A stretch of DNA of 64,000 bases, taken from assembly GCF_988242995.1 (NCBI RefSeq), contig NZ_OZ547043.1, one strand, 5' to 3'. The notes below the pieces were generated by a model. The model did no database searches, was not told where the DNA came from, and was given only the letters and a program-made list of their open reading frames with translations. The stretch's first letter is position 1. Each line of letters starts with the position of its first letter. Of the stretch, positions 1,390 to 54,260 are shown one piece after another. A program made the position numbers and the translations under genes.

Positions 1390-2085
1390 TTAAACCGGCG
1401 GCAGATCGAACAGTAACACTTCGCTGTCGCTATCCGCATGAATGGAGATTGCCTGCTCATCCCAGATTGCCAGACCATCGCTGGTCGAGGCTTTCACGCC
1501 GTTAATGGTGACATTGCCTTTCACCACCTGAATCCAGACGCGGCGTTCAGCGGCAATCTGATGCACCGACTGCTCATCTTTTACCAGCGCCCAGCGGTAC
1601 AGTTCCATATCCTGATACACTTTCAGCGAACCATCACGCGCATCCGGCGAGAGCACCAGCTGTTTGCCCTGTACGGCATCGAAGCGACGCTGTTCATAAC
1701 GCGGCGTAATACCGTTTTCTTCAGGCATGATCCAGATTTGATACAGATGCAGACGCTCGGTGCTGCTTGGGTTGTACTCTGAGTGACGAATACCCGTACC
1801 CGCACTCATAATCTGGAACTCACCCGCCGGAACCTGCTCTTTATTGCCCATGCTGTCCTGATGCTCAACAGTACCTTCCAGCACGTAGGTCAAAATTTCC
1901 ATATCTTTATGCGGGTGAGTGCCGAAGCCCTGCCCTGCTTCAATCACGTCGTCGTTAATCACGCGCAGCGCGGAGAAGCCCATAAAGTTCGGATCGTAAT
2001 AGTTGGCAAAAGAGAAAGTATGCCAGGAGTCCAGCCAGCCATGATTTGCATGACCACGTTCATTTGCTTTGCGTAAGTAGATCAT
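1390..2085 (-). CDS. yhhW: pirin-like quercetin 2,3-dioxygenase
   Basis: 231 aa ORF with cupin/pirin His motifs (GFGTHPHKDMEI); matches remembered YhhW. Confidence 0.9.
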   Translation of the reverse strand: MIYLRKANERGHANHGWLDSWHTFSFANYYDPNFMGFSALRVINDDVIEAGQGFGTHPHKDMEILTYVLEGTVEHQDSMGNKEQVPAGEFQIMSAGTGIRHSEYNPSSTERLHLYQIWIMPEENGITPRYEQRRFDAVQGKQLVLSPDARDGSLKVYQDMELYRWALVKDEQSVHQIAAERRVWIQVVKGNVTINGVKASTSDGLAIWDEQAISIHADSDSEVLLFDLPPV

Positions 2086-2207
2086 TTTTATTCGCCCCCT
2101 GAATGATTTCGATGGGCTTAGTGTGGACCCGATCCGCCTGGGATGATAGAGGGTGAAAATTGACCCCTCTGTTCAAAAAAATTGAACTATTCGAGGGGCC
2201 ATAAAAC

Positions 2208-3245
2208 TTACTTCGCGAGAGTCACTGTGGAGGGAGAGGCTTGCTCAAATCCTCGTTCAAGGATTTCCAGATTGGTAAGAACTTCAGATTCCTTGACGTA
2301 ATTTGGCGCACCGTTGGTGATGGTTTGATACAACGCATCATAAACGCGCCCGTAATCGCCCATCTCCGGCTTCATCTCTTCTCTGACCGTCACACCCTCG
2401 TCATTGACATACTCCAGCACACCGACCGAATCATCCGCTGCGAATCCCGGTTCGCCCGGCATAATATTAGCCTTGAGGCTGGTTTCCTGCTGGTCGATAC
2501 CGTATTTAATAAACGAACCTTTCTTACCGTGAACGATAAATTTCGGATAATCGATTTTCACCAGATGGCTGGTTTTGACGATGGCTTTCAGGTCGCCATA
2601 AAACAGCTGCGCTTCAAAGGTGTCGTCAGGATTGGCTTTATTACGCAGGCTGCGGATGTCATAAGCGACGTGATCCGGGCGACCGAACAGAGAAATAATC
2701 TGGTCCATCGTATGCACACCAAGACCATAGAACGCGCCATCCTGCGGCAGCCCAGGTTTGGTTTCTGCCACCGGGCGGTAATAGTCAAAATGGCTTTCCA
2801 CTTCGACAATCTCTCCCAACTTGCCACTTTCAATCGCTTTTTTCGCTGTCAGGAAGCAGGAATCAAAACGACGATTCTGATACGGCGTGACGGTCAGTCC
2901 TTTGCTTTTCGCCAGCGCAAACAGCTCCTTCGCCTGGGCAAGCGTCGGGGTGAACGGTTTTTCGACCAGCACATTTTTCCCGGCTTCCAGCGCGCGCTTC
3001 GCGTACTCGAAGTGGCTGTCTGCATGGGTGCAGACCACAACCAGCTTAACATCGGGATCGTTTAGTACTTCGTCGAGATCGCTGGTGAAATGGATATGAG
3101 AGTAAATGGGGGCCTGTTCTTCCGGCTTCGCATGGCGGCGAAAAATATGCGCGACATGCCAGCTATCCTTGCGGTTAAGTACATACGGCAGATGGTAACG
3201 GGTGGTGCTTTTGCCGAAGCCAATAAAGGCGCAGTTGATGACCAT
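2208..3245 (-). CDS. yhhX: Gfo/Idh/MocA-family NAD(P)-dependent oxidoreductase
   Basis: 345 aa ORF, N-terminal Rossmann motif (IGFGKS), matches remembered YhhX. Confidence 0.9.
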   Translation of the reverse strand: MVINCAFIGFGKSTTRYHLPYVLNRKDSWHVAHIFRRHAKPEEQAPIYSHIHFTSDLDEVLNDPDVKLVVVCTHADSHFEYAKRALEAGKNVLVEKPFTPTLAQAKELFALAKSKGLTVTPYQNRRFDSCFLTAKKAIESGKLGEIVEVESHFDYYRPVAETKPGLPQDGAFYGLGVHTMDQIISLFGRPDHVAYDIRSLRNKANPDDTFEAQLFYGDLKAIVKTSHLVKIDYPKFIVHGKKGSFIKYGIDQQETSLKANIMPGEPGFAADDSVGVLEYVNDEGVTVREEMKPEMGDYGRVYDALYQTITNGAPNYVKESEVLTNLEILERGFEQASPSTVTLAK

Positions 3246-3367
3246 GATTTCGTCCTTTTTAAGGTGATTATTTACACCTTAGCGCAAAGCGGACGTGGTT
3301 CCTACTGGAGTGCGCATAACGAACACAAGCACTTCCCGTGGATAAATTGAAAACGAAAGATCAAAAA

Positions 3368-3457
3368 AAAAGCCAGCACCCGGCTGGCTAAGTAATACTG
3401 GAAGCAATGTGAGCAATGTCGTGCTTTCAGGTTCTCCGCGAGGGTCTTCCTGATCGC
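3368..3457 (-). ncRNA. ryhB: RyhB iron-sparing small RNA
   Basis: Plus strand carries the reverse complement of the RyhB sequence (gcgagggtcttcctgatcgc ... aaaaagccagcacccggctggc) ending in a Rho-independent terminator hairpin plus U-run; located between yhhX and yhhY as in K-12; ends approximate. Confidence 0.85.
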
Positions 3458-3495
3458 AAGACAATAATAATCATTCTCATTCGCACTTGTCCAAC
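3458..3495 (-). promoter_or_regulatory. ryhB promoter with Fur box
   Basis: Minus-strand sequence GAGAATGATTATTATTGTC immediately upstream of the RyhB 5' end resembles the 19-bp Fur consensus GATAATGATAATCATTATC. Confidence 0.6.
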
Positions 3496-3579
3496 ACTTT
3501 TTGCAAAAAAAATGCATTTGACTCGCATTTGAAAGTCAATGATGTTGAAAGGGACATTTACCCCAAAGAGGACAAAGGA

Positions 3580-4068
3580 ATGAGTGAGATAGTGATACGC
3601 CATGCTGAAACGCGCGATTACGAGGCCATCAGGCAGATTCACGCCCAGCCGGAGGTGTATTGCAACACGCTACAGGTGCCTCATCCTTCCGATCATATGT
3701 GGCAGGAGCGACTCGCCGATCGTCCCGGCATCAAGCAACTCGTCGCCTGTATTGATGGAGACGTCGTGGGCCATCTCACCATTGACGTGCAACAGCGCCC
3801 ACGCCGCAGTCATGTTGCAGATTTTGGTATTTGTGTCGACTCCCGTTGGAAGAATCGCGGCGTCGCCAGCGCCCTGATGCGAGAGATGATTGAAATGTGC
3901 GACAACTGGTTGCGGGTAGATCGTATTGAGCTAACGGTGTTCATCGATAACGCGCCAGCAATTAAGGTCTATAAAAAATTTGGATTTGAGATTGAAGGGA
4001 CTGGCAAGAAGTACGCATTACGTAATGGTGAATATGTCGATGCGTATTATATGGCGCGGGTGAAGTAA
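3580..4068 (+). CDS. yhhY: GNAT-family N-acetyltransferase
   Basis: Internal ATG of ORF 3487-4068 gives 162 aa starting MSEIVIRHAETRDY; GNAT motifs (RWKNRGVASALM); matches remembered YhhY. Confidence 0.88.
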   Translation: MSEIVIRHAETRDYEAIRQIHAQPEVYCNTLQVPHPSDHMWQERLADRPGIKQLVACIDGDVVGHLTIDVQQRPRRSHVADFGICVDSRWKNRGVASALMREMIEMCDNWLRVDRIELTVFIDNAPAIKVYKKFGFEIEGTGKKYALRNGEYVDAYYMARVK

Positions 4069-4303
4069 GATAGTGCCCTTTTTCTGAGATGGAAAAAGGG
4101 TGTCATTCAAAATCGGCATACCTTCCTTTAATGTATTTATTTTCCCAATAAATATATAAGATTTACCTCATAATTACGTCCTAAAGTGTAATATTTTATT
4201 TTTTAATATATACGCCTACAATTTCCTGGAGTAAATAAATAACAATTAACAAGCATAATAGTGCCATTGATAAAATAGCATGCCATAAAAGGACTTTTCA
4301 TGG

Positions 4304-5482
4304 ATGAGTAATATTGTTTACCTGACAGTAACGGGAGAACAACAAGGAAGCATCTCCGCAGGTTGTGGGACTTCTGAGTCTACAGGTAATCGCTGGCAGA
4401 GCGGGCATGAGGATGAAATATTTACATTCTCATTCTTAAATAGTATTACTAATACGGGGCTTGGTTCACAGTTCCATGGTATAACATTTTGTAAATTAAT
4501 TGATAAAAGCACTCCATTATTTATTAATTCCATTAACAATAATGAACAATTATTTATGGAATTTGACTTCTATCGAATAAATAGATTTGGTAGATGGGAA
4601 AAGTATTATTATATACAACTAAGAGGCGCTTTTTTATCGGCTATTCATCATCAGATCATTGAAAATCAACTGGATACAGAAACATTAACTGTTAGTTATG
4701 AATTTATCCTCTGTCAACATCTTATCGCAAATACCGAGTTCAGCTATTTGGCACTCCCTGAAAATTATAACTGTTTGTTTTTACCAAATTCAAAAAACCA
4801 AACAAATAATCGTTTCAAAACGTTAAACAGCAAAGCTATTGGCAGGCTACTTGCTGCTGGTGGCGTATACAATGGGAACATTGAAGGATTCAGAGATACT
4901 GCGGAAAAACTGGGTGGAGATGCAATAAAAGGCTATGATCAAATACTAAATGAAAAAACAGCGGGCATAGCGATAGCAACAGCATCTATTCTTTTAACAA
5001 AGCGTTCTAATGTTGATACATATACAGAAATAAATAGTTACTTAGGCAAACTTAGAGGTCAACAAAAACTTCTTGATGGTATAGACATAATAGAAACAAT
5101 ATACATTAAGAGACCTTCAAAAGACTTAGCTAACTTACGAAAGGAGTTTAATAAAACTGTAAGAAAAAATTTTCTTATCAAACTTGCAAAAACCTCCGAA
5201 GCATCTGAAAGATTCAACGCCGAAGACCTTTTAAGAATGAGAAAGGGCAATGTTCCTCTAAATTATAATGTTCACCATAAACTATCTCTAGATGATGGTG
5301 GTACTAATGATTTCGAAAATTTAGTATTAATCGAAAACGAACCATATCATAAAGTTTTTACTAACATGCAATCACGAATAGCTAAGGGAGTATTAGTAGG
5401 TGAAAGCAAAATCACTCCCTGGGCCATTCCATCTGGCTCAATTTATCCTCCCATGAAAAATATTATGGAACCCACAAAATGA
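4304..5482 (+). CDS. yhhZ: Hcp-like protein fused to a C-terminal HNH/colicin-DNase-type nuclease domain (polymorphic toxin)
   Basis: 392 aa; N-terminal Hcp-like segments (FTF, IDKSTP, FYR); C-terminal HNH motif VHHKLSLDDGGTNDFENLVLIENEPYHKVF resembling colicin E9 DNase; AT-rich. Confidence 0.85.
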   Translation: MSNIVYLTVTGEQQGSISAGCGTSESTGNRWQSGHEDEIFTFSFLNSITNTGLGSQFHGITFCKLIDKSTPLFINSINNNEQLFMEFDFYRINRFGRWEKYYYIQLRGAFLSAIHHQIIENQLDTETLTVSYEFILCQHLIANTEFSYLALPENYNCLFLPNSKNQTNNRFKTLNSKAIGRLLAAGGVYNGNIEGFRDTAEKLGGDAIKGYDQILNEKTAGIAIATASILLTKRSNVDTYTEINSYLGKLRGQQKLLDGIDIIETIYIKRPSKDLANLRKEFNKTVRKNFLIKLAKTSEASERFNAEDLLRMRKGNVPLNYNVHHKLSLDDGGTNDFENLVLIENEPYHKVFTNMQSRIAKGVLVGESKITPWAIPSGSIYPPMKNIMEPTK

Positions 5483-5973
5483 TGACTAAAACCCAAATAA
5501 ATAAATTAAAAAAAATGATGAATGATTTAGACTATCCATTTGAAGCACCGCTCAAGGAATCATTTATTGAAAGTATAATCCAAATAGAATTTAATTCTAA
5601 TTCAACTAATTGCCTGGAGAAATTATGTAATGAAGTTAGTATTCTTTTTAATAATCAACCTGATTATCTTAATTTTTTAAGAGCAATGGATGGATTCGAA
5701 GTTAATGGATTACGATTATTTAGCCTCTCGATTCCAGAACCTTCAGTTAAAAACCTTTTTACCGTAAATGAATTTTATAGAAATAATGATGATTTCATAA
5801 ACCCTGATCTACAAGAACGGTTAGTGATCGGGGATGATAGCATTTCAATATTTACTTATGACATTAAAAGTAACTTTTTTGAAATTAGAGATAATATTGG
5901 CACCGAAAATATATTCAGTTCGTTTAGTGATTTCTCTTCATTCTTAAACGAAATCATGGACAGTTGTTCATAA
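5479..5973 (+). CDS. yrhA: putative cognate immunity protein of the YhhZ nuclease toxin
   Basis: 164 aa ORF whose ATG overlaps the yhhZ stop (ATGA); AT-rich; position matches K-12 yrhA, but here uninterrupted. Confidence 0.7.
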   Translation: MMTKTQINKLKKMMNDLDYPFEAPLKESFIESIIQIEFNSNSTNCLEKLCNEVSILFNNQPDYLNFLRAMDGFEVNGLRLFSLSIPEPSVKNLFTVNEFYRNNDDFINPDLQERLVIGDDSISIFTYDIKSNFFEIRDNIGTENIFSSFSDFSSFLNEIMDSCS

Positions 5974-6422
5974 TAATCAAAAGGTAACAAAAATCATTGT
6001 AAACCATGCCATCTTTTTAGAGATTACCAGCAGAAAATTCCTTGTTCGAAACTTAGCAATGCAAGCTATGGAAAAACTTACAACGGAACTACACTCCTTA
6101 AGTGAGATGGACCGAAGACATGTAATCTCTATTTTAGCCGAAATAGCTAATGGCTATGATGATTTTAGTGACATGTTGATTTAGTTAGAATTTCACCCGA
6201 ATCATAAGATTCTGATATCTTAAATAAGAAAATCCCGTTCGACGTTCTGAAAAAGAAATCACAAAATATTAGCAGATACTTATTTCGTGACTGTATATTA
6301 TCCGATGAACTTTTTTCAAAACCAGCATTTAATAATATCTTTGACGAAGATGAACGCGTCTTTTCTCAAAGTATAACGCAAGAATAATAATATAACGATC
6401 AACAATAATATTTATTATAATT

Positions 6423-6707
6423 ATGATTACTTATCACGACGCATTCGCGAAAGCGAACCATTACCTTGATGATGCAGATCTCCCTGCCGTCATCACTCTG
6501 CATGGACGTTTTAGCCAGGGCTGGTATTTCTGTTTCGAATCACAAGAATTTCTTGAATCTGGAGATGAGGCCGCGCGTTTAGCCGGTAACGCACCTTTTA
6601 TTATTGATAAAGACAGTGGTGAAATTCATTCCCTTGGAACGGCAAAGCCGCTGGAAGAATATCTACAGGTTTATGAAATAAAAAAGGCTACCTTCGGCTT
6701 GCCCTGA
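6423..6707 (+). CDS. yrhB: small heat-stable chaperone-like protein
   Basis: 94 aa ORF at the position of K-12 yrhB upstream of ggt. Confidence 0.75.
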   Translation: MITYHDAFAKANHYLDDADLPAVITLHGRFSQGWYFCFESQEFLESGDEAARLAGNAPFIIDKDSGEIHSLGTAKPLEEYLQVYEIKKATFGLP

Positions 6708-6744
6708 CAATACGGCCCTCTTCCCACGAAGAGGGCCGCTAACC

Positions 6745-8490
6745 TTAATAACCCGCCGTTAAATCATCCACCGAGCGCGGATCGGATGCGCCGTACAACT
6801 CGCCGTCCGGCCCAACCATAATGCTTTGTGTACTACCCATCGCCTCTTTCAGCGCCACTTTCTGACCTTTTGCTTCCAGCAGCTTGAGCGTATCCGGGCT
6901 AAACCCTTTTTCGACACGCAGCTCGTCCGGCAACCACTGATGGTGGAAACGCGGTGCATTGGTCGCTTCGGCGACATTCATACCATAATCGATGCTGTTC
7001 ACCACCATTTGCAGCACGGTAGTGATGATCCGGCTACCGCCTGGGCTACCAGTCACTAACCAGGTTTTACCGTCTTTCACCACAATGGTTGGGGACATCG
7101 ACGACAGCGGGCGTTTATTCGGCCCGACCGCGTTGGCGTCACCACCCACCAGCCCGTAAACGTTCGGTACGCCAGGTTTGGCGGAGAAATCATCCATCTG
7201 GTTATTAAGCAGAATACCGCTCTCGCCCGCGACAATGCCCGTCCCGAAGGTGGTGTTCAGCGTATAGGTCACCGCTACCGCGTTGCCGTCTTTATCCACC
7301 ACTGAGTAATGGGTAGTTTGATTACTCTCATAAGGCGCAAGCTTGCCGGGGCGAATTTCGCTGGATGGCTTCGCTTTATTGATATCGATTTGATCGGCAA
7401 TAGATTTGGCATAGGCTTTATTGGTCAGCGCCTGCCACGGAACTTTGACAAAATCCGGGTCGCCAAGATATTCCGAGCGGTCGGCGTAGGCATATTTCTC
7501 AGCTTCTGCCATGATTTGCATCGCGTCGGCGCTGCCAAAGCCGTATTTCTTCATATCGAAGTTTTCCAGAATATTGAGGATTTGTACGATATGGATCCCG
7601 CCGGAAGATGGCGGTGGCATGGAGTAAACCTGATACCCGCGATAATCGCCGCTAATCGGTGTACGTTCGACCGCTTTATACGCCGCTAAATCTTCTTTAG
7701 TGATCAAGCCACCGTTTTTCTGCATCTCCTGAGCGATCTGCTCCGCTATTGTGCCTTTGTAGAATTCGTCCGGGCCGTTTTCGGCAATCATCTCCAGGCT
7801 CTTTGCCAGGTTCGCCTGCACCAGCTTGTCGCCCTTTTTCAGCGGCGCGCCCTCTTTCCAGAAGATAGCCTTGCTGTTTTCGTGATTCGGCAACACTTCG
7901 CTACCGTAGGTTTTGAGATCGTCAGCCAGCGCGTCATTAACGATAAAACCATCGCGTGCCAGTTTAAACGCCGGCTGCACCACTTTATTTAACGGCATGG
8001 TGCCGTACTTCTCCAGCGCCAGCGAGAAACCTGCGACCGTACCTGGCGTACCGGAGGCCAGATGCGAAGTGAGTGATTTTTTGCTGTCCGGGTTGCCCTG
8101 GTCATCGAGGAACATATCGCGGGTCGCTTTGGCGGGTGCCATTTCGCGGAAATCGATAGCGGTGGTATTGCCATTTTTCGAGCGGATCAGCATAAAACCA
8201 CCACCGCCCAGATTCCCTGCCTGCGGATGCGTTACCGCCAGCGCGTAGCCCACCGCCACGGCGGCATCAACGGCATTCCCGCCCTCCTTTAGAATATCTA
8301 CCCCCACCTGAGTGGCAGTAGCATCTACAGACGCCACCATCCCCTGTTTCGCGCGTACCGGATGAAAGACATCTTCCTCCACGCCGTAAGAAACAGGAGA
8401 CGGCGCAGGTGGCGCGGCTACCGTACTAAAACAACTTCCTGTGAACAGAGCAGCAATGGCCACCCGGCGTAAAAACGTCGGTTTTATCAT
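6745..8490 (-). CDS. ggt: gamma-glutamyltranspeptidase
   Basis: Start refined to MIKPTFLRR (signal peptide) within ORF 6745-8517; 581 aa; conserved catalytic Thr region (NQTTHYSVVD) and GGG motifs. Confidence 0.95.
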   Translation of the reverse strand: MIKPTFLRRVAIAALFTGSCFSTVAAPPAPSPVSYGVEEDVFHPVRAKQGMVASVDATATQVGVDILKEGGNAVDAAVAVGYALAVTHPQAGNLGGGGFMLIRSKNGNTTAIDFREMAPAKATRDMFLDDQGNPDSKKSLTSHLASGTPGTVAGFSLALEKYGTMPLNKVVQPAFKLARDGFIVNDALADDLKTYGSEVLPNHENSKAIFWKEGAPLKKGDKLVQANLAKSLEMIAENGPDEFYKGTIAEQIAQEMQKNGGLITKEDLAAYKAVERTPISGDYRGYQVYSMPPPSSGGIHIVQILNILENFDMKKYGFGSADAMQIMAEAEKYAYADRSEYLGDPDFVKVPWQALTNKAYAKSIADQIDINKAKPSSEIRPGKLAPYESNQTTHYSVVDKDGNAVAVTYTLNTTFGTGIVAGESGILLNNQMDDFSAKPGVPNVYGLVGGDANAVGPNKRPLSSMSPTIVVKDGKTWLVTGSPGGSRIITTVLQMVVNSIDYGMNVAEATNAPRFHHQWLPDELRVEKGFSPDTLKLLEAKGQKVALKEAMGSTQSIMVGPDGELYGASDPRSVDDLTAGY

Positions 8491-8609
8491 CGTTATTCTC
8501 CAGAGATTAAGGGGCAACCCCAGCTAAGCCTGGTATATAACTCTGAATTAATCATCGTTTTGCCGGGAAGCGAGTAAACTTAAAGGATATCTTCAGAGGA
8601 GGATACGCG

Positions 8610-9050
8610 ATGAAACGACTTCTGATTCTTACGGCACTCCTGCCGTTTGTCGGCTTTGCACAGCCCATTAATACTCTGAACAACCCCAACCAGCCGGGAT
8701 ATCAGATCCCCAGTCAGCAGCGGATGCAAACCCAAATGCAAACGCAGCAAATCCAGCAAAAAGGGATGCTGAATCAGCAACTGAAAACGCAAACTCAGTT
8801 GCAACAGCAGCATTTAGAAAACCAGATCAACAATAATTCTCAGCGGGTGTTGCAGTCACAGCCGGGGGAGCGAAATCCCGCCCGGCAGCAAATGCTGCCC
8901 AACACCAACGGCGGGATGTTAAACAGCAACCGTAATCCGGATAGTTCGTTGAATCAGCAGCATATGCTGCCGGAGAGGAGAAACGGCGACATGCTGAATC
9001 AGCCCAGCACGCCGCAGCCTGACATTCCGTTGAAAACTATTGGGCCGTAA
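8610..9050 (+). CDS. yhhA: secreted Gln-rich low-complexity protein
   Basis: 146 aa; N-terminal signal peptide ([17 protein letters not shown]) followed by Q-rich repeats ([12 protein letters not shown]); good SD (GGAGGA) upstream. Confidence 0.8.
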
Positions 9051-9780
9051 AGTTCGGACCAATCACGTCAATCGCATCGGTGCAGATGCAATCCACGCCC
9101 CAGCGCAGCAACTCTGCCGCGCGCTGGGGTTTATTGACGGTATAAACCAGAATCCGTAATCCGGCGTCTTTCAACTGCATCACTCGCGCTTTATCAAGCA
9201 ACTTATGATTGAGATGAATAGAGACGCAGCCCAGCCGCGCGGTCAGTTCTCGCCAGTCGTCGCGCCACTCATCAAGCAATAAACCGCGCGGCAGTTCTGG
9301 TACTGCTTGTTGCGCGGCTTCTAAAGCATCAATCTCAAACGATGACAGCAGCGGCGGCGTCATTCCGGCCCACAGTTCGCGTGCCGCCAGCGCCACCATT
9401 TTGCCCGTTAATGGCCCGGTGCCAGTGGTGGGTTTGATTTCGATATTCGCCATCATCCCGTGTTCGCGACAGCGTTCCGCCACCTGCGAAAGCAACGGTA
9501 GCGGCTCACCTTTAAACGCTTTGCTGTACCAACTGCCTGCATCCACGCGCAGTAAATCCTGCCAGTTCAGATCGCCCGCGACGCCCCAGCCGTTGCTGGT
9601 GCGTTCAAGATTGTCGTCATGGAGCAGGAAGATCTCGCCATCTTTCGATAACTTCGCGTCAAATTCGATCATCTTATGACCGTATTTTGCCCCGACGTCG
9701 ATTGCTGCCAGGGTGTTCTCCGGGGCCAGCTTACCGCCGCCACGATGAGCGACGATGCGGGGATAAGGCCAGTTACTCAT
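9037..9780 (-). CDS. ugpQ: glycerophosphodiester phosphodiesterase (cytoplasmic)
   Basis: 247 aa, GDPD-family motifs ([17 protein letters not shown]); last gene of ugp operon. Confidence 0.95.
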
Positions 9781-14250: not shown

Positions 14251-14304
14251 ATAAGCGGGAAAAATAGAAGGTCTGAATCAAACTCTACAGATTGCTCATC
14301 GTTT

Positions 14305-14410
<106 letters not shown>

Positions 14411-14467
14411 TTACATTTGTCACCTGTCTCAAAGGAGTCTTTTGACTCCTTATCAATCAACGTGTTA

Positions 14468-40749: not shown

Positions 40750-40947
40750 CACCTACCAACGCGCCGTTATTTCCTGACGGCGCAGTAAATTCCTGCCAAA
40801 TATCGACTCACGTCACATTTTTTTGATCACGATTTGGTCCCTCAAAATGTGAGACGCTTCGATCCTCTTTTTCTCCCGTTCACCTACTATACGCTTGAAG
40901 TTGTCCATGATTGTCCATAGACAACTGTAAATGTTCAGGTGCGCGCC

Positions 40948-41694
40948 ATGAAATCATTAAGTAAGTCGTCACAAATACCGCTCTATCAACAAGTGGTGGA
41001 GTGGATAAGAGAAAGTATTTATACCGGGGATTTGGTGGAAGACGATCGCATTCCTTCGGAATACCAGATTATGGATATGCTGGAAGTGAGTCGGGGAACC
41101 GTTAAAAAAGCAGTCGCCCAACTGGTAAAAGAAGGCGTGTTGATTCAGGTCCAGGGGAAGGGAACATTTGTCAAAAAAGAGAACGTGGCATATCCGTTAG
41201 GTGAAGGATTATTGTCATTCGCGGAATCGCTGGAAAGCCAGAAAATACACTTTACCACTGAAGTTATTACGTCACGGATTGAACCGGCTAATCGTTATGT
41301 GGCAGAGAAATTAAGAATAACGCCCGGTCAGGATATTCTTTACCTTGAGCGTTTACGTTCAATTGGTGATGAAAAAGCGATGCTGATAGAGAACCGTATC
41401 AATATTGAGCTATGCCCCGGCATCGTGGAAATCGATTTTAATCAACACAATTTATTTCCAACAATAGAAAGTTTGTCGCAAAGAAAAATTCGTTACTCGG
41501 AAAGTCGCTATGCCGCGCGATTAATTGGTAATGAACGCGGTCATTTTTTAGATATCAGTGAAGATGCACCCGTTTTGCATCTGGAGCAGTTAGTCTTTTT
41601 CTCCCGAGAGTTACCCGTTGAGTTTGGCAACGTCTGGTTAAAAGGAAATAAATATTATCTGGGTACCGTGCTGCAACGGCGGGAATTGAGTTAA
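40948..41694 (+). CDS. GntR/HutC-family transcriptional regulator (HTH + UTRA effector domain)
   Basis: ATG at 40948 with upstream AGGTG (track start 40939 is GTG); N-terminal GntR HTH (IPSEYQIMDMLEVSRGTVKKAVAQLVKEGVL...GKGTFV); not part of K-12 at this position. Confidence 0.8.
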   Translation: MKSLSKSSQIPLYQQVVEWIRESIYTGDLVEDDRIPSEYQIMDMLEVSRGTVKKAVAQLVKEGVLIQVQGKGTFVKKENVAYPLGEGLLSFAESLESQKIHFTTEVITSRIEPANRYVAEKLRITPGQDILYLERLRSIGDEKAMLIENRINIELCPGIVEIDFNQHNLFPTIESLSQRKIRYSESRYAARLIGNERGHFLDISEDAPVLHLEQLVFFSRELPVEFGNVWLKGNKYYLGTVLQRRELS

Positions 41695-41718
41695 ATACAC
41701 TTTTTTATGAGGAATAAA

Positions 41719-42192
41719 ATGCAAGGCATACAGTTTCAGGAAAATTATATTCAACGACTTCCGGCAGGGTTAAGCGTTGAACAGATCATCCGTCAGTTAG
41801 CGCAACCGTTGGTTGCTGCTGAGCTGGTGGTCCCTGATTTTGCCGATCACGTACTGAAACGTGAGGCGACGTACCCAACAGGGCTGCCTACCGAACCGCC
41901 GTGCGTCGCTATTCCGCACACGGACCATAAACATGTCAGGCACAATGCAATTGCCGTCGGCATCCTGCCGGAACCGGTAGAGTTTGCCGATATGGGCGGC
42001 GATCCTGACCCCGTACCTGTCAGGGTGATTTTTTTGCTCGCCTTAAGCGAAAGTAATAAACAATTAAATGCCCTGGGCTGGATTATGGAGATGATTCAGG
42101 ATACGCCCTTTATGCGCGCCCTGCTTACGATGGAAACAACAGAAATACACACAGTAATCTTAAACAAAATGAAAGAACGAGGTGAAATATGA
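41719..42192 (+). CDS. PTS EIIA component, galactitol (GAT) family
   Basis: GatA-like motifs (YPTGLPTEP ... VAIPHTDH); start taken at ATG after GAGGA (track start 41707). Confidence 0.75.
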   Translation: MQGIQFQENYIQRLPAGLSVEQIIRQLAQPLVAAELVVPDFADHVLKREATYPTGLPTEPPCVAIPHTDHKHVRHNAIAVGILPEPVEFADMGGDPDPVPVRVIFLLALSESNKQLNALGWIMEMIQDTPFMRALLTMETTEIHTVILNKMKERGEI

Positions 42193-42470
42193 GTCAAACC
42201 ATTTTATTTGTCTGCGCCACGGGTATTGCCACATCCACGGCGGTAACAGAAAAAGTCATGGAATATTGTAAAGAGCACGGTCTTAACGTCAATTATTCCC
42301 AAACCAACGTTGCCTCTTTACCTGGAAATACTGACGGCGTAGCACTGGTAGTCTCAACGACTAAAGTGCCTTATGAACTCGACGTCCCGGTGGTTAACGG
42401 CTTGCCGATTATTACCGGTATTGGCGAAGAGAAAGTACTGGCGCAAATTGTTTCGATCCTTAAAAAGTAA
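42189..42470 (+). CDS. PTS EIIB component, galactitol (GAT) family
   Basis: 93 aa; phosphocysteine motif near the N-terminus (ILFVCATGIATST) like GatB; 4-bp overlap with EIIA. Confidence 0.78.
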   Translation: MSQTILFVCATGIATSTAVTEKVMEYCKEHGLNVNYSQTNVASLPGNTDGVALVVSTTKVPYELDVPVVNGLPIITGIGEEKVLAQIVSILKK

Positions 42471-42546
42471 TTAATAATAATTAATTTCAACCCACTCCAT
42501 CAGGCGCTAACGCGAGGTGCGCTCTCGCCTGAAAAAGAGGTTTATT

Positions 42547-43905
42547 ATGAACGATATCGCGCATACCCTCTATAATATTGTGCAATATATATTGGGATTT
42601 GGTCCCACGGTAATGTTGCCGTTGGTGTTATTTATTCTTGCTCTCTTTTTTAAAGTAAAACCCGCTAAAGCCTTACGTTCGTCATTAACGGTCGGTATTG
42701 GTTTTGTCGGTATTTATGCCATTTTCGATATTCTTACCAGCAATGTCGGGCCAGCGGCCCAGGCGATGGTTGAACGCACCGGAATTAATTTACCGGTGGT
42801 GGATTTAGGCTGGCCGCCGCTTTCCGCTATTACATGGGGTTCGCCAATTGCCCCGTTTGTTATTCCCCTGACTATTCTGATTAACGTGGCGATGCTGGCG
42901 TTAAATAAAACCCGCACCGTTGACGTAGATATGTGGAACTACTGGCATTTTGCCCTTGCCGGTACGCTGGTTTATTACAGCACCGGCAGCCTGTTCTTTG
43001 GTTTGCTGGCAGCGGCGATTGCTGCGGTGGTAGTACTTAAACTCGCCGACTGGTCTGCGCCACTGGTACAAAAATACTTTGGCCTGGAAGGGATCTCTTT
43101 GCCGACGCTCTCTTCGGTGGTGTTCTTTCCGGTCGGTCTGTTGGTCGACAAAATCATCGACCATATCCCCGGCCTCAATCGTATTCATATCGATCCGGAA
43201 ACCGTACAGAAAAAGTTTGGCATATTCGGCGAACCGATGATGGTTGGTACTATTCTGGGCATTCTGCTCGGCGTAATTGCCGGATACGATTTCAAAAAAG
43301 TCTTGCTGCTTGGCATCAGCATTGGCGGTGTGATGTTCATCCTGCCACGCATGGTTCGCATTCTGATGGAAGGTTTATTACCGCTGTCTGAAGCCATTAA
43401 AAAGTATCTCAATGCCAAATACCCTGACCGTGACGATCTCTATATCGGCCTGGATATCGCCGTTGCCGTAGGTAACCCAGCGATTATCTCCACCGCCCTG
43501 CTGCTGACGCCAATCTCGGTCTTTATCGCGTTTGTCCTTCCGGGTAATGAAGTCCTGCCGCTTGGCGACCTTGCCAACCTGGCGGTAATGGCGTCGATGA
43601 TTGCTTTAGCCAGCCGTGGCAACATTTTCCGCACCGTTCTGGCGGCGATTCCGGTGATTATTGCCGATCTGTGGATTGCGACTAAAATCGCGCCGTTTAT
43701 TACCGGAATGGCGAAAGACGTTAATTTCAAATTTGCCGAAGGCTCCAGCGGCCAGGTCTCCAGTTTCCTTGATGGCGGTAACCCGTTCCGCTTCTGGCTG
43801 CTGGAAATCTTCAACGGCAATCTCATCGCCATTGGTCTGGTGCCGGTTATTGCCCTGGTACTGTATGGTATTTTCCGAATGACGCGGAGCACGGTTTATG
43901 CCTGA
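42547..43905 (+). CDS. PTS EIIC permease, galactitol (GAT) family
   Basis: About 452 aa polytopic membrane protein; ATG at 42547 preceded by AAGAGG (track start 42517 is GTG). Confidence 0.75.
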   Translation: MNDIAHTLYNIVQYILGFGPTVMLPLVLFILALFFKVKPAKALRSSLTVGIGFVGIYAIFDILTSNVGPAAQAMVERTGINLPVVDLGWPPLSAITWGSPIAPFVIPLTILINVAMLALNKTRTVDVDMWNYWHFALAGTLVYYSTGSLFFGLLAAAIAAVVVLKLADWSAPLVQKYFGLEGISLPTLSSVVFFPVGLLVDKIIDHIPGLNRIHIDPETVQKKFGIFGEPMMVGTILGILLGVIAGYDFKKVLLLGISIGGVMFILPRMVRILMEGLLPLSEAIKKYLNAKYPDRDDLYIGLDIAVAVGNPAIISTALLLTPISVFIAFVLPGNEVLPLGDLANLAVMASMIALASRGNIFRTVLAAIPVIIADLWIATKIAPFITGMAKDVNFKFAEGSSGQVSSFLDGGNPFRFWLLEIFNGNLIAIGLVPVIALVLYGIFRMTRSTVYA

Positions 43906-45406
43906 TAACAGCGCAGCTATCGTTATCGATATTGGCACCACCAATTGCAAAGTCACCTGCTTTTCCTGCCTGGACGCAACGACGTTGGGCGCGCATAAAT
44001 TCGTGACGGCAAAACAGATCTCCCCACAGGGCAATGTCGATTTCGATATCGACGCCCTCTGGCAGGAGGTCCGCCAGGCGATAGCGCAACTGAACGCCGC
44101 TTCGCCGCTGCCAGTCAGGCGGATAAGCATTGCCAGTTTTGGCGAGTCAGGCGTGTTCCTTGACGAGCATGGCGAGATCCTGACGCCAATGCTGGCATGG
44201 TATGACCGTCGCGGTGAAGAGTATCTGGCTACACTTAGCGAGGCAGACAGTGCGGCACTTTATGACATTTGCGGGTTACCGCTGCACAGCAATTACTCTG
44301 CCTTCAAAATGCGTTGGTTGCTGGAACATTACCCACTGCGTAATCGCCGCGGCCTGCGTTGGCTACATGCGCCGGAAGTACTGCTCTGGCGGCTGACCGG
44401 CGAACAGCGCACGGATATCACCTTAGCCAGCCGCACGCTGTGTCTGGACGTGCGCAAAGGCGCATGGTCAGTGAAAGCGGCGGCGTTGTTACACGTTCCC
44501 TGTTCAGCATTTGCGCCATTGGTGCAGCCAGGCGAACACGCCGGATGGGTCAGCGAGTCGCTCTGCAAAACGCTTGGGTTCTCGCAACCGGTCAGCGTGA
44601 CGCTGGCCGGACATGACCATATGGTGGGTGCGCGAGCGTTGCAGATGATGCCGGGCGATATCCTTAACTCGACGGGGACCACAGAAGGTATTCTGCAACT
44701 GGATACACAACCGACGCTGGATGAACAGGCCAAACGTGACAAGCTGGCAAACGGCTGTTATTCGCTTGCAAACCAGTTCACCCTGTTTGCGTCGCTGCCC
44801 GTGGGCGGTTTCGCTCTGGAGTGGCTGCGTAACACGTTCCGGCTAACCGATGAGGAGATCGCCGCATCACTTACTCGCGGACATGCGGATTACCTGGCGG
44901 GGAACTGGTCGCTCGATGACATTCCCCTCTTTATTCCACATCTTCGCGGTTCGGGTTCGCCCTATAAAAATCGCCATACTCGTGGATTATTTTATGGGCT
45001 TGGCGATACGTTAAATATCGACATGTTAATTGCCAGCGTCTCACTGGGATTAACCATGGAATTTGCCAACTGCTTCGCCTGTTTTAATGTGCCTGGCACC
45101 AGCGCGTTAAAAGTGATAGGTCCGGCAACCCAAAATCCCCTTTGGCTGCAATTAAAAGCGGATATTTTACAGCGTCCGGTTGAAGCAATTGCATTTAACG
45201 AGGCGGTTTCTGTCGGAGCATTATTAACTGCCGCACCGGATATTCCACCGCCGCAAGTTACCATAGCCCAACGTTTGTTACCGAATCGGGCGAGATACCA
45301 TCAATTACAGCGTTATCAGCACAAATGGAAAAGCTGGTATCAGTTGAAATTACAGCAAGAAGGCGTGATGCCATTACACCATCGGGAGGAGCACTATGTT
45401 GAGTAA
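43898..45406 (+). CDS. FGGY-family carbohydrate kinase
   Basis: 502 aa; N-terminal actin-fold phosphate-1 motif (AIVIDIGTTNCKV) and FGGY-type glycine-rich segments; 8-bp overlap with EIIC gene. Confidence 0.7.
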   Translation: MPDNSAAIVIDIGTTNCKVTCFSCLDATTLGAHKFVTAKQISPQGNVDFDIDALWQEVRQAIAQLNAASPLPVRRISIASFGESGVFLDEHGEILTPMLAWYDRRGEEYLATLSEADSAALYDICGLPLHSNYSAFKMRWLLEHYPLRNRRGLRWLHAPEVLLWRLTGEQRTDITLASRTLCLDVRKGAWSVKAAALLHVPCSAFAPLVQPGEHAGWVSESLCKTLGFSQPVSVTLAGHDHMVGARALQMMPGDILNSTGTTEGILQLDTQPTLDEQAKRDKLANGCYSLANQFTLFASLPVGGFALEWLRNTFRLTDEEIAASLTRGHADYLAGNWSLDDIPLFIPHLRGSGSPYKNRHTRGLFYGLGDTLNIDMLIASVSLGLTMEFANCFACFNVPGTSALKVIGPATQNPLWLQLKADILQRPVEAIAFNEAVSVGALLTAAPDIPPPQVTIAQRLLPNRARYHQLQRYQHKWKSWYQLKLQQEGVMPLHHREEHYVE

Positions 45407-45665
45407 AACCGTGGAGGTCAGAAACAGTACTGGCCTGCATGCACGTCCGGCGGCGTGTCTGGTGAAAGCCGCCAAAAAGTTTAGCTGTAAAGTGACGCTG
45501 CATTATGAGGGTAATGATATTAATGCCACCAGCATGATGAATATTATGCGCGCCGGAATAAAAGGCGGCAAAACGGTGGAAATACGCTGCGAAGGCGATG
45601 ATGAAAATGAGGCAATACAAACTCTCACTGCCTTATTTCGTGACCGCTTCGGTGAAGCTGAATAA
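45396..45665 (+). CDS. HPr-family phosphocarrier protein (operon-specific paralog)
   Basis: 89 aa; active-site His context GLHARPAA identical in pattern to HPr His15; strong SD GGGAGGAG. Confidence 0.8.
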   Translation: MLSKTVEVRNSTGLHARPAACLVKAAKKFSCKVTLHYEGNDINATSMMNIMRAGIKGGKTVEIRCEGDDENEAIQTLTALFRDRFGEAE

Positions 45666-45695
45666 TTAACTGATATTAAAAGATGAGGTTTTCAA

Positions 45696-46547
45696 ATGCC
45701 ATTAGTTAATGGACGGATACTGCTCGACCGCATTCAGGAAAAACGGGTATTAGCGGGCGCGTTTAATACCACCAATCTGGAGACGACGATTTCAATTTTA
45801 AACGCCATTGAGCGTTCAGGATTACCCAACTTCATTCAGATTGCGCCCACCAATGCACAACTCTCGGGATACGATTACATTTATGAAATCGTGAAACGTC
45901 ACGCCGATAAAATGGATGTTCCGGTCAGTCTTCATCTGGATCACGGGAAAACTCAGGAGGATGTTAAACAGGCGGTGCGCGCGGGCTTTACCTCGGTCAT
46001 GATTGACGGTGCCGCATTATCTTTTGAAGAGAATATCGCTTTCACCCAGGAAGCTGTCGATTTCTGTAAATCCTATGGCGTACCGGTTGAAGCGGAGCTG
46101 GGGGCGATTCTCGGCAAAGAAGATGATCACGTCAGCGAAGCCGATTGCAAAACGGAACCGGAAAAGGTGAAGACCTTTGTCGAGCGCACCGGTTGCGACA
46201 TGCTGGCAGTTTCTATTGGCAACGTTCATGGCCTGGACGATATACCGCGTATCGATATCCCCCTGCTGAAGCGCATTGCCGAAGTCTGCCCGGTGCCGCT
46301 GGTTATTCACGGCGGCTCCGGTATCGCCCCGGAAATATTACGCAGCTTTGTTAATTATCGCGTCGCTAAAGTAAATATCGCCAGCGATCTGCGCAAAGCG
46401 TTTATCACCGCCGTCGGCAAAGCGTATGTGAATAATCACAACGAGGCGAATCTGGCACGAGTGATGGCATCAGCAAAAAACGCCGTCGAGGAAGATGTGT
46501 ATAGCAAAATCCTGATGATGAATGAGGGGCATCGGTTGGTTAAGTAA
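45696..46547 (+). CDS. class II ketose-bisphosphate aldolase (GatY/KbaY/FbaA family)
   Basis: 283 aa; metal-binding His motifs (HLDHG, VIHGGSG) typical of class II tagatose/fructose-bisphosphate aldolases. Confidence 0.8.
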   Translation: MPLVNGRILLDRIQEKRVLAGAFNTTNLETTISILNAIERSGLPNFIQIAPTNAQLSGYDYIYEIVKRHADKMDVPVSLHLDHGKTQEDVKQAVRAGFTSVMIDGAALSFEENIAFTQEAVDFCKSYGVPVEAELGAILGKEDDHVSEADCKTEPEKVKTFVERTGCDMLAVSIGNVHGLDDIPRIDIPLLKRIAEVCPVPLVIHGGSGIAPEILRSFVNYRVAKVNIASDLRKAFITAVGKAYVNNHNEANLARVMASAKNAVEEDVYSKILMMNEGHRLVK

Positions 46548-52029: not shown

Positions 52030-52745
52030 CCAGGGTTAATTTGGCAATAAATATCCTCCGGCATAGCCGGAGGTTTTTCAAATGCGCCTATAAGGCTCTC
52101 TTACCAGCCGCGCCCTAACAGGCGCACACGATCTGACATTTGCATCCAACTTCGTTACTTACGGCCCGTAAACGGGCTGCCCGGATAGGGAATCGATAAC
52201 TGCTCTCCCATTTTATCCTCTTCAAGCTGGTGCTTTATGTAATCCTGTATCTTCGCCGTGTTCTTACCCACTGTATCGACGTAGTACCCTCTGCACCAGA
52301 ACTCCCTGTTCCTGTATTTGAATTTCAAATCACCAAACTGCTCGTAAAGCATCAGACTGCTTTTCCCTTTCAGATATCCCATAAAGCCGGATACGCTCAT
52401 TTTGGGCGGGATCTCCACAAGCATATGGATATAATCTGCACAGCATTCAGCTTCCAGAATCCGTACGCTTTTCCACTCACACAGCTTTCTCAAAATACTG
52501 CCTATTGCTCTACGCTTCTCTCTGTAGAACACCTGTCTTCGGTATTTTGGCGCAAAAACTATGTGATATTTACAGTTCCATCGGGTGTGCGCTAAGCTCT
52601 TTTCGTTCCCCATTGGGACCCCCTTTTGATTTCTTGTTTGACACTTGCAGTTGCCAGACCGCAAAGTGTTTTAACAAATCAAAAGGGGTTTTAATAACTG
52701 GCTCAAAGCTGAAAGCTTTCCGGAACCCCCAGCCTAGCTGGGGGT
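52030..52745 (-). mobile_element. IS200-like insertion sequence (IS200/IS605 family, tnpA only); boundaries approximate
   Basis: About 0.7 kb element containing a Y1/HUH transposase gene, with a perfect GC-rich hairpin (aacccccagc cta gctgggggtt) at the tnpA-upstream end as in IS200 left ends; absent from the K-12 arrangement. Confidence 0.7.
52155..52613 (-). CDS. tnpA: IS200/IS605-family Y1 (HUH) transposase TnpA
   Basis: 152 aa from MGNEKSLAHTRWNCKYHIVFAPKYRR; HUH-type motif (YIHMLV) and catalytic Tyr region; start refined from ORF 52155-52664. Confidence 0.85.
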   Translation of the reverse strand: MGNEKSLAHTRWNCKYHIVFAPKYRRQVFYREKRRAIGSILRKLCEWKSVRILEAECCADYIHMLVEIPPKMSVSGFMGYLKGKSSLMLYEQFGDLKFKYRNREFWCRGYYVDTVGKNTAKIQDYIKHQLEEDKMGEQLSIPYPGSPFTGRK

Positions 52746-54260
52746 TTTCTGTGCACAATTATGCATGCTGAACATTCTTCCAGCATGTTTACTGTCACGG
52801 GCGTTAAGACCTAAAACTGTCCCCGTTTCACCTATGCGTTCTCTTCCACCATTACCGTTATGTGCAACAACTTGATTTATACCTAACATTTGTGAGCATG
52901 CTAATAGTTCTTCAAGTTTCGGTCTGTAATCTGTCGAAACAGAAAAATAACGATTAAAGGATCGACAAGAGATAGCCCGGCTAGTTTTAAACTTTTTACC
53001 ATTAATGATGGCATGATGCTTCTTATTAATAATTGCCGCTAATTCGACCGGATCGAGAGCATTGGTCATTTCATCAATAGAGACTGTTATCGGTCCTATA
53101 ATGTAACGTTTTCGCTGATCATCAAAAGTTATCCCATGATGATTTGCCATTATTTTGTATTTGGGGTCATAGAAACATACAGGATAATCTTTTATCCCAG
53201 CGTAGGTATCCTCATCAAGTGGTTTCATACGCGTGAAGTTCTGCATATAGTTACCATTGCAATTCGTTTCATGATTACCAGCTAATACATGAACATTTTT
53301 ATTAATACTCATTATGCGTTTTAACAAATCGATGATAAATTGATCGCCACAGATATTACTAAATCGATCGCCGGTTTGGTCACCCAGAAACGTACATGGC
53401 GTCACTGCGCCCTGATTAATAACTAAATATGGCTGAAGACTTTCTAAAACCACATCTCTTCTGTTCAGAATACTGATTATTGTATTAACATTAATGTCTA
53501 GTTCCTCATTAATTTTTTCCCTTAATAAAACGTTGAGAACTTCATCTTCTATATTAAGCAACTGGCTAAGAAAATTTACTTCTTCAGCCATAATTCCCAA
53601 ATGTCCCGTTGCGAAAAGCGCGTACAAAACTGCACCGACTGAGCCATCGGTATCACCAAAATAGGTTGGTCTGGTACTTGTGGGATCAACGGGTGAACAA
53701 TTGGAGAAATAGATTCTGTCAGCGAACTGGGGTTTTATAATTGTTTCGAATTTAATATCAGATACATTGTATTGCGATATTTTCCAGTTCCAGATGGGTT
53801 TGTACGACTCAGTAACTGCAACATCATTAGCATTATCATTTACTGTCATATTATTAAGTAAATAAACAATGCTGCACCAATTAATATCGGTATCATCAAG
53901 AGGGCAACCGTAATTTTTACTATTAATTGTCACAATAAACTGATAACTATTATTCCTACGTAGAATATGGGCACGCATGCCCGATAGCATACTATATTTT
54001 TCTGAATGATTCGTTTCTATGGTAAATGAAATTTTGTCATCTTGAAAAGATTGTTGGAAACGTTCTATTTGCCAATCATCAATTTTTTCCACAACTTCAC
54101 CGAGCATTGTCCTGGCAATACTTGATATATCATCACCTATACCATTTGCAATATACCCAAACAGTTCTTTAGTGAAGTTAGTAACATGCTCTTGCACCAT
54201 ATCATTTGTTGCGATAGTCGTTATACTGTCGTTAGTACCTGCCACAGTTCCAATTTTCAT
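52734..54260 (-). CDS. yhiJ: DUF4049-type protein with C-terminal PPP-like metallophosphoesterase motifs; 3' end abuts or is altered by the IS200 end
   Basis: 508 aa; motifs GDTDG, GDQTGDRF, LAGNHE in PPP order; SD GAGGT upstream; paralog of the next gene; AT-rich. Confidence 0.8.
   Translation of the reverse strand: MKIGTVAGTNDSITTIATNDMVQEHVTNFTKELFGYIANGIGDDISSIARTMLGEVVEKIDDWQIERFQQSFQDDKISFTIETNHSEKYSMLSGMRAHILRRNNSYQFIVTINSKNYGCPLDDTDINWCSIVYLLNNMTVNDNANDVAVTESYKPIWNWKISQYNVSDIKFETIIKPQFADRIYFSNCSPVDPTSTRPTYFGDTDGSVGAVLYALFATGHLGIMAEEVNFLSQLLNIEDEVLNVLLREKINEELDINVNTIISILNRRDVVLESLQPYLVINQGAVTPCTFLGDQTGDRFSNICGDQFIIDLLKRIMSINKNVHVLAGNHETNCNGNYMQNFTRMKPLDEDTYAGIKDYPVCFYDPKYKIMANHHGITFDDQRKRYIIGPITVSIDEMTNALDPVELAAIINKKHHAIINGKKFKTSRAISCRSFNRYFSVSTDYRPKLEELLACSQMLGINQVVAHNGNGGRERIGETGTVLGLNARDSKHAGRMFSMHNCAQKTPS

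Follow-up and report, generated by a model that had tools for sequence, protein, structure and literature searches.

Here we report a computational analysis of the yhhZ-yrhA locus, which lies between yhhY and ggt on a 64,000-nucleotide (nt) stretch of contig NZ_OZ547043.1 (NCBI RefSeq assembly GCF_988242995.1), referred to below as the window. The window is part of an Escherichia coli chromosome with the gene order gntR-yhhW-yhhX-ryhB-yhhY ... ggt-yhhA-ugp, and it is matched by all but one of 5,426 complete E. coli genomes. The island between yhhY and ggt carries a predicted toxin gene, yhhZ, in which the tube-protein (Hcp) domain of type VI secretion systems (T6SS) is joined to a putative HNH nuclease end, followed by the immunity-type gene yrhA, the remnants of two further immunity-type genes, and the intact gene yrhB (Table 1).

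The stop codon of yhhZ (TGA, 5480-5482) and the start codon of yrhA (ATG, 5479-5481) share the tetranucleotide ATGA at 5479-5482, within ...ACAAAATGATGACT..., as had been stated in an earlier description made from the letters of the window alone (hereafter the sequence-only reading). That description also presented the segment 4069-5973 as an AT-rich block. Its GC content is indeed 0.320, compared with 0.511 for the whole window and with the flanking values of yhhY and ggt given in Table 1, but the right-hand end was set wrongly, as the low-GC block runs beyond 5973 to about 6420, with a GC content of 0.31 over the replaceable cassette and an intermediate value of 0.449 in yrhB. At 33% GC, open frames of 392 and 164 codons have chance probabilities of ~6e-14 and ~3e-6, respectively, and both open reading frames (ORFs) are as described in the sequence-only reading. 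In the yhhZ leader, the sequence contains a hairpin just 3' of the yhhY stop codon (about 4076-4100) and a Shine-Dalgarno sequence, AAGGA, 9 nt 5' of the ATG. The GC-rich hairpin between the convergent genes yrhB and ggt is a likely terminator for both directions and probably marks where the island ends on the right; a terminator scan gave it no confirmation, and promoter and terminator consensus scans found no excess over shuffled sequence.

The overlap region is also the site of a protein variant. A public protein collection holds proteins of 552-556 amino acids (aa), P0001, P0004 and P0005, that relate to positions 5476-5482 of the window. The sequence of P0001 is an in-frame YhhZ-YrhA fusion (...MEPHKMMTKTQ...), which a single additional A in the run of A's ahead of the ATGA would produce. 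From their lengths and 95-96% identity, P0004 (556 aa) and P0005 (552 aa) are presumably similar fusions. These fusion proteins have few members, all from metagenome or read-archive assemblies, and may represent a sequencing error or a rare slippage variant.

Table 1. Features of the yhhY-ggt interval, with coordinates in the window
Feature	Position	Strand	Description	Basis
yhhY	3580-4068		gene left of the island; GC 0.515	
yhhZ leader	4069..4303	+	AT-rich intergenic region; GC 0.294	
yhhZ (RefSeq label tssD)	4304..5482	+	predicted 392-aa Hcp-linker-HNH polymorphic toxin, probable Hcp-ET1 orthologue	
Hcp (TssD) tube-protein domain	4304..4744	+	residues 1-147 of YhhZ	TIGR03344
Conserved linker	4745..4960	+	residues about 148-219 of YhhZ	motif NSKxxGRLLAAGGxYNGNxEGFRxTAExLGGDA..GYDQ.LNEKT.G
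Variable C-terminal toxin domain	4961..5479	+	residues about 220-392 of YhhZ; putative HNH/His-Me finger core at about residues 280-352	
yrhA	5479..5973	+	predicted 164-aa SUKH-superfamily immunity protein, probable ETI1 orthologue	
yrhD region	5981..6184	+	putative decayed immunity gene	tblastn homology
Truncated yrhD ORF	6059-6184		41 codons	
Unannotated fragment	6226..6363	+	putative immunity-gene fragment	tblastn homology
yrhB	6423..6707	+	intact 94-aa Imm35 protein	Pfam Imm35
Replaceable cassette	4961..6418	+	HNH toxin end, yrhA and two immunity remnants	blastn against contig L016
Hairpin	6713..6738		GC-rich, between convergent yrhB and ggt	sequence
ggt	6745-8517 as ORF listed; 6745-8487 by annotated length (1743 bp)		convergent to the island; GC 0.542	

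The N-terminal domain of YhhZ belongs to the Hcp/TssD family by several profile comparisons, which bear out the Hcp-like domain of the sequence-only reading. Residues 1-147 match NCBIfam TIGR03344 at E=1.2e-34 with 119.6 bits, above the curated cut-off of 58.9, the Pfam family T6SS_HCP (PF05638) is matched at E=7.7e-12, and the YhhZ family profile finds the Hcp chains 6a2v (8.5e-18), 3he1 and 5mxn in the PDB. The linker that follows is constant in all Hcp-ET variants aligned and has no Pfam match.

The C-terminal end carries the motif VHHKLSLDDGGTNDFENLVLIENEPYHKVF at residues 323-352, in which H324 and H325, N335, N339 and H349 (positions 5273-5350 of the window) make up the HNH signature. 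Among 13 full-length orthologues, the most distant of them 50% identical, there is no variation at H324, H325, D330, D331, G333, N335, N339 or H349. A search with the family profile finds the DNase domains of colicin E7, pyocin S2 and pyocin AP41 at E about 2e-3, with alignments spanning the catalytic core, and the AlphaFold model of residues about 260-380 (predicted local distance difference test score, pLDDT, 81-95) has a strand-strand-helix arrangement. The elements of a His-Me finger, i.e. the beta-beta-alpha-metal motif with its catalytic His pair, structural Asn and metal-ligand His, are all present. The assignment of the YhhZ C-terminus as an HNH (His-Me finger) nuclease domain is supported by profile, predicted fold and conservation, and in this way the HNH/colicin-DNase motif proposed from the letters holds; the domain search gave an Hcp match above cut-off and an HNH match by profile and fold. 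The Pfam model Col-Pyo_DNase did not reach significance for YhhZ (E=0.78).

The product of yrhA matches NCBIfam NF038335 at E=2.8e-37, and its own sequence has no significant Pfam match and reaches no Pfam SUKH model. An exhaustive search of 1.84 billion proteins returned 72 representatives at E<=1e-3, a small and divergent family; an alignment of 37 of them has the motif Y..FL...DGF..NG, and Pfam matches at E<=1e-3 among these 37 members are to SMI1_KNR4 (SUKH-1, PF09346) in 11, SUKH_5 in 7 and SUKH_6 in 7. The family profile matches PDB entry 2icg at E=3.9e-4. The AlphaFold 2 (AF2) model of YrhA has a pLDDT of 91.5, and its six best Foldseek matches are all SUKH proteins (2icg; 2prv, i.e. 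YobK, two chains; 3d5p; Knr4; 2pag), with template modelling (TM) scores of 0.38-0.58 and probabilities of 0.97-1.00 in five of the six and 0.80 for Knr4. Taken together, the family profile, the Pfam matches of family members and the predicted fold identify YrhA as a divergent member of the SUKH superfamily. SUKH proteins are a versatile family of immunity proteins in polymorphic toxin systems (PMC3482391). A YrhA homologue lies 3' of the HNH domain in four contexts, including strain 55989, Citrobacter koseri and two toxins without Hcp (L018 and L019), and this conserved adjacency, together with the literature on ETI1 described below, indirectly supports the view that YrhA neutralises the adjacent toxin, in line with the immunity-like role that the sequence-only reading had given it. 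Direct binding of YrhA to YhhZ would be expected. In the literature covered by our search, we found no description of yrhA as a SUKH gene, nor of yrhB or yrhD as orphan immunity genes at this locus.

To place the island in a wider context, we compared homologous loci. The survey comprised 120 listed hits from the protein database, and the many 'partial' YhhZ clusters in that database were not used as evidence, as they may be pseudogenes or contig ends. Among the hits listed, the N-terminal 58-64% of the protein is kept at 60-76% identity, and the C-termini then diverge; the alternative ends match Gln_amidase/Tox-PL1 (PF15644), colicin D (PF11429), PF21814 or no Pfam family. The last conserved alignment columns are G221-S228, and the constant part ends at residue ~220-230. 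At the yhhY-ggt site, C. koseri has an Hcp-HNH gene with a 164-aa YrhA homologue (67% identity) downstream, C. portucalensis (L009) has an Hcp-Gln_amidase gene with an Imm35 gene directly downstream, and C. rodentium has an Hcp gene with a toxin end of unknown type and a 101-aa gene downstream. Salmonella, where no yhhY gene was called, carries between yhhX and ggt an Hcp gene with another toxin end of unknown type and an overlapping 84-aa gene. At a different site, tamB-ppa, C. koseri has an Hcp-colicin D gene accompanied by a colicin D immunity gene. NCBIfam has no family for the 84-aa (Salmonella) or the 101-aa (C. rodentium) immunity genes, and none of these five Hcp-toxin loci from Citrobacter and Salmonella adjoins T6SS structural genes. 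By these comparisons, the constant part carries interchangeable predicted toxin ends in Escherichia, Citrobacter and Salmonella, almost always at yhhY-ggt. The toxin end and the downstream gene change together, which is the signature of toxin-immunity pairs, and the loci combine the constant trafficking N-terminus, variable toxin C-terminus and matched immunity gene directly downstream that characterise polymorphic toxins (Zhang et al. 2012).

The linker and HNH end are also found on other carriers. At L018 (3930-5507) and L019 (1-1564), toxins with N-termini unrelated to Hcp have a linker and HNH end 49-53% identical to YhhZ from residue about 165 (the BLASTP alignments begin at YhhZ residue 162-172), with a YrhA-type gene 3' of each; their N-terminal domains and linker match no NCBIfam or Pfam family, and one of the two loci adjoins the conjugation genes TraG_N and TraH. 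The linker therefore travels with the toxin. Within E. coli, 3757 of 5426 complete genomes carry the full island and about 31% lack it, and the other states of the slot are a 60-bp empty site, yrhB alone, or an unrelated DUF4225 gene. In O157:H7-type genomes (L005), the slot consists of a single 303-aa DUF4225 gene, with no Hcp island.

The DNA downstream of yrhA appears to record earlier occupants of the slot. In tblastn searches, the Salmonella 84-aa gene matches positions 5981-6157 (E=5e-12, 44% over 59 aa), which is the yrhD region. The homology begins upstream of any canonical start codon, so that the full-length gene has none, a stop codon at 6182-6184 cuts the 51-aa YrhD of K-12 to 41 aa, and the RefSeq annotation of strain 746 treats the region as a pseudogene. 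The C. rodentium 101-aa gene matches positions 6226-6363 (E=4e-11, 43% over 46 aa); this fragment corresponds to the first 47 residues only, is not annotated by RefSeq in matching genomes and resembles an immunity gene in decay. The last gene, yrhB, belongs to Imm35 (Pfam PF15567, E=8.8e-22) and is 69% identical to the Imm35 gene of C. portucalensis (tblastn, E=2e-40) and 78% identical (74/95) to that of L016, an E. coli-like metagenome contig with the order yhhX-yhhY-[Hcp-Gln_amidase]-[Imm35]-ggt. Imm35 is described as specific to papain-like Tox-PL1 toxins (PMC3482391) and not to HNH nucleases, and the window allele has no Tox-PL1 domain, which makes yrhB an orphan here.

Comparison with L016 fixes the boundaries of the exchange. 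By blastn, positions 2001-4960 of the window match the contig at 96.6% and positions 6419-9498 at 92.3%, and 4961-6418 is unmatched. The breakpoints fall at 4960 (YhhZ residue about 219) and at 6419, four bases 5' of the yrhB start codon; therefore a 1458-bp cassette sits in the window where L016 has a 489-bp papain-like toxin end. By homology and position, yrhB is the predicted immunity gene of a displaced papain-like (Tox-PL1/Gln_amidase) toxin end. A tblastn search with eight variant toxins detected no fragments of displaced toxin ends downstream of yrhA.

The interpretation given in the sequence-only reading is essentially sound, but the reading had also judged the locus little studied, and in this it was mistaken. 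In 2009, YhhZ was already described as an 'evolved Hcp' (Blondel et al. 2009, PMC2907695), and in 2017 it was assigned to group 32 of the His-Me finger proteins (PMC5714182). The pair has been published as Hcp-ET1/ETI1. According to reviews and a preprint (PMC6730261, PMC6099711, preprint 10.1101/2024.03.05.583533), Hcp-ET1 of STEC004, O104:H4 C227-11 and 55989 is an orphan Hcp-HNH toxin that requires T6SS-2, breaks down the DNA of its target and is neutralised by ETI1, encoded downstream; PMC6730261, PMC6099711 and PMC9990079 cite Ma et al. 2017 (Virulence 8:1189) for the pair. Strain 55989 (NC_011748.1) carries the yhhZ-yrhA-yrhD-yrhB island at yhhY-ggt, and its proteins are identical to those of the window at 378 of 392 positions in YhhZ (96.4%) and 159 of 164 in YrhA (97.0%). 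From these published accounts and the 55989 locus comparison, the window pair can be taken with good confidence as the orthologue of Hcp-ET1/ETI1. The toxin-immunity pair is thus already known, and the refinement offered here is modest.

Allele comparisons give some indication of how the island moves. At the nucleotide level, the window and 55989 are 98.6% identical over yhhZ and yrhA, compared with 94.4% in yrhB, 95.1% in yhhY and 94.5% in ggt, so that the flanking genes are unusually diverged, a pattern consistent with a different history of the cassette and of yrhB and the flanks. Against strain 746, identity is 99.9% in the island, about 99.1% in the flanks and about 98% in the rest of the window. 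These differences suggest that the cassette has spread horizontally in recent times and that it lies in a hotspot of recombination. At residues 98 and 86, the window allele of YhhZ has W and E, which are conserved across genera, in place of the L and G of the K-12-like and 55989 alleles; at residues 44 and 157, it has F and C and departs from the cross-genus consensus (L and R).

Few finished genomes represent the lineage of the source strain, as the nearest of the 5,426 complete E. coli genomes is only 98.4% identical over a 25-kb core flank (window 7001-32000). Strain 746 was considered as a stand-in from which to judge the T6SS genes of the source and was rejected, being only about 98-99% identical outside the island and differing at nikR-yhhJ. 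In the window, nikR-yhhJ holds a sugar-utilisation cluster (40939-46547, plus strand) with a GntR regulator, galactitol-type phosphotransferase system (PTS) components IIA, IIB and IIC, an FGGY kinase, an HPr-like protein and a class II aldolase; elsewhere the same interval holds an Rhs element with orphan immunity genes (strain 746) or a HicAB pair (55989), and it is another variable slot. Rfam matches in the window comprise the small RNA RyhB just upstream of yhhY (3364-3428, minus strand, 83 bits) and STnc490 near DUF4049 genes (52623-52746, minus strand, 145 bits), both known RNAs unrelated to the toxin locus.

We consider it likely that the locus is a polymorphic T6SS effector module, with an HNH DNase, a SUKH immunity protein and a slot for cassette exchange. 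The present analysis shows the domain identities, the conservation of the catalytic motif, the pairing of each toxin end with a downstream gene of its own, the breakpoints of the cassette and the families to which the orphan genes are homologous, and DNase activity, neutralisation by ETI1 and T6SS-2 dependence are taken from the literature. The Hcp domain would allow YhhZ to enter the Hcp tube of a T6SS whose genes lie elsewhere (T6SS-2 in the published work), and YhhZ would be fired into neighbouring bacteria as a tube component, where the HNH end would cut their DNA; for the source strain, secretion is presumed. YrhA would be translated from the shared mRNA by translational coupling, and this SUKH-type protein would bind the nuclease and protect the producer and its kin. 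Recombination would swap the toxin end together with its immunity gene, the left-hand exchange point lying within the linker near residue 220, and each swap would leave the earlier immunity gene downstream, represented here by two decayed remnants and the intact yrhB, which might still guard against papain-like Hcp toxins of competitors.

Several observations weigh against this effector reading, and each is considered here with the alternative to which it bears. Compared with the 55989 allele, yhhZ has 14 nonsynonymous and 3 synonymous codon differences, which gives a Nei-Gojobori (NG86) ratio of nonsynonymous to synonymous substitution rates (dN/dS) of 1.26, from small counts (for yhhY, dN is 0.005 and dS 0.244). 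A ratio of about 1.2-1.3 within E. coli fits diversifying or relaxed selection and argues against strong constraint, and it would suit a silent relic, a horizontally acquired remnant that is not expressed or cannot be delivered, silenced by H-NS, harmless and drifting to decay. H-NS-bound 'promoter islands' are indeed reported inside yhhZ and yrhA in K-12 (PMC3661553), a spontaneous yhhZ-yrhA deletion has been recovered in laboratory strains, the two neighbouring immunity genes have already decayed, and the frequency at which complete genomes lack the island (about 31%) points the same way. So does a K-12-like strain that keeps yhhZ intact while IS1 cuts its yrhA to 138 aa; in that strain, either the toxin is tolerated at native expression or truncated YrhA still works. 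A relic is nevertheless hard to reconcile with two ORFs that remain intact at 32% GC, given the odds against a 392-codon frame, with invariant catalytic residues and with a dN/dS of about 0.17 for the toxin end measured against Citrobacter. With the full island retained in 3757 of 5426 genomes and function reported for a roughly 96% identical allele, we regard the relic explanation as unlikely.

The separation from any secretion system is the second difficulty. Annotation transferred from strains 746, Ecol_316 and THO-008, which covers most of the 64-kb window (about 14254-14467 and 52049-52755 remained unaligned), contains no T6SS structural gene, as the sequence-only reading had found, and K-12-type E. 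coli, which keeps the pair, is described as being without T6SS genes (PMC6730261). Together with the tight translational coupling and the linker-HNH and YrhA-type pair that occurs without Hcp beside TraG_N and TraH, this could point to an internal addiction or phage-defence module of the toxin-antitoxin kind, in which YrhA restrains the HNH nuclease until stress releases it. Such a module would not account for a well-conserved Hcp domain above its curated cut-off, and a constant head joined to variable ends, each with its own immunity gene, is what marks secreted polymorphic toxins; orphan immunity genes would serve no purpose except against toxins that arrive from outside, the K-12-like strain survives with a truncated yrhA, and T6SS-2-dependent delivery is reported, so that we hold an internal module to be very improbable. 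We give still less credence to the possibility that YhhZ is a structural Hcp paralogue whose HNH end has degenerated and lost catalysis, serving perhaps to bind DNA or protein. Blondel et al. (2009) called the domain 'degenerate' and held YhhZ to be unconnected with T6SS function, and the Pfam HNH model by itself is sub-significant (E=0.013); the full HH...N...N...H motif is invariant, however, the proteins matched by profile and fold are active DNase toxins, an immunity-type gene is paired with yhhZ, and DNase activity is reported for Hcp-ET1. Two further points apply to the evidence for the effector reading itself. The equation of Hcp-ET1 with yhhZ is drawn from reviews, a preprint and the 55989 locus, and the AF2 model of the Hcp part (residues 1-190, from a 13-sequence alignment) is poor, with a pLDDT <50, for which reason its Foldseek matches to Hcp are weak (E about 1e-3, TM about 0.27). 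The fold evidence for the Hcp domain is weak, and the profile matches are sufficient for the assignment.

A broader proposal built on the effector reading seems possible to us, if somewhat doubtful. In this proposal, yhhY-ggt would be a dedicated cross-genus slot at which cassettes recombine in the linker and stack in front of the resident immunity genes, so that the island would be a layered record in which HNH/YrhA is newest, followed by the Salmonella-type and C. rodentium-type remnants, with yrhB older. The linker would act as a functional delivery or entry module, and yrhB would actively protect against the papain-like Hcp toxins of Citrobacter and other E. coli, even in strains without a T6SS. 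The protective role of yrhB is itself presumptive.

The pair was already well established as an 'evolved Hcp' effector, so that its confirmation here adds little. What the analysis adds is the SUKH assignment of YrhA, the exact boundaries of the cassette and the recognition of 5974-6707 as a candidate orphan immunity array. These provide a coherent account of three 'y-genes' of K-12, with yrhA as SUKH immunity gene, yrhB as orphan Imm35 gene and yrhD as the stump of a third immunity gene, and they indicate that the RefSeq label 'tssD' for yhhZ conceals a toxin function. With its exact breakpoints, the locus offers a compact example of cassette displacement that can be followed in an alignment, and it suggests that strains without a T6SS may retain immunity genes as a defence against the Hcp toxins of their neighbours.

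Among known systems, the closest is Hcp-ET1/ETI1 of strain 55989, which is like the window locus in site, protein lengths, overlap and neighbours and differs from it by 14 and 5 amino acids in the two proteins, none of them at the invariant HNH residues. Colicins E7 and E9 and pyocins S2 and AP41 enter their targets by receptor binding and Tol/Ton import, whereas YhhZ would be delivered by a T6SS through its Hcp fusion, and their immunity proteins have the four-helix Im fold, in contrast to the SUKH fold predicted for YrhA. The T6SS Rhs effector of Serratia marcescens with its Rhs2-CT HNH toxin and RhsI2 (PDB 9t38) uses an Rhs/PAAR shell as carrier, where YhhZ has Hcp. With SUKH proteins such as YobK of Bacillus subtilis (2prv) and Lin2918 of Listeria (2icg), YrhA has the predicted fold and family motif in common, and like SUKH immunity proteins it is encoded directly 3' of a nuclease toxin, but it forms a small divergent subfamily of its own (NF038335). 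The string of downstream immunity genes is likewise seen in the orphan arrays of rhs and cdi loci and at Usp of uropathogenic E. coli (Hcp-ET3-4, with three immunity genes). The island differs from the rhs and cdi arrays in that only immunity genes or their fragments remain, two of the three decayed.

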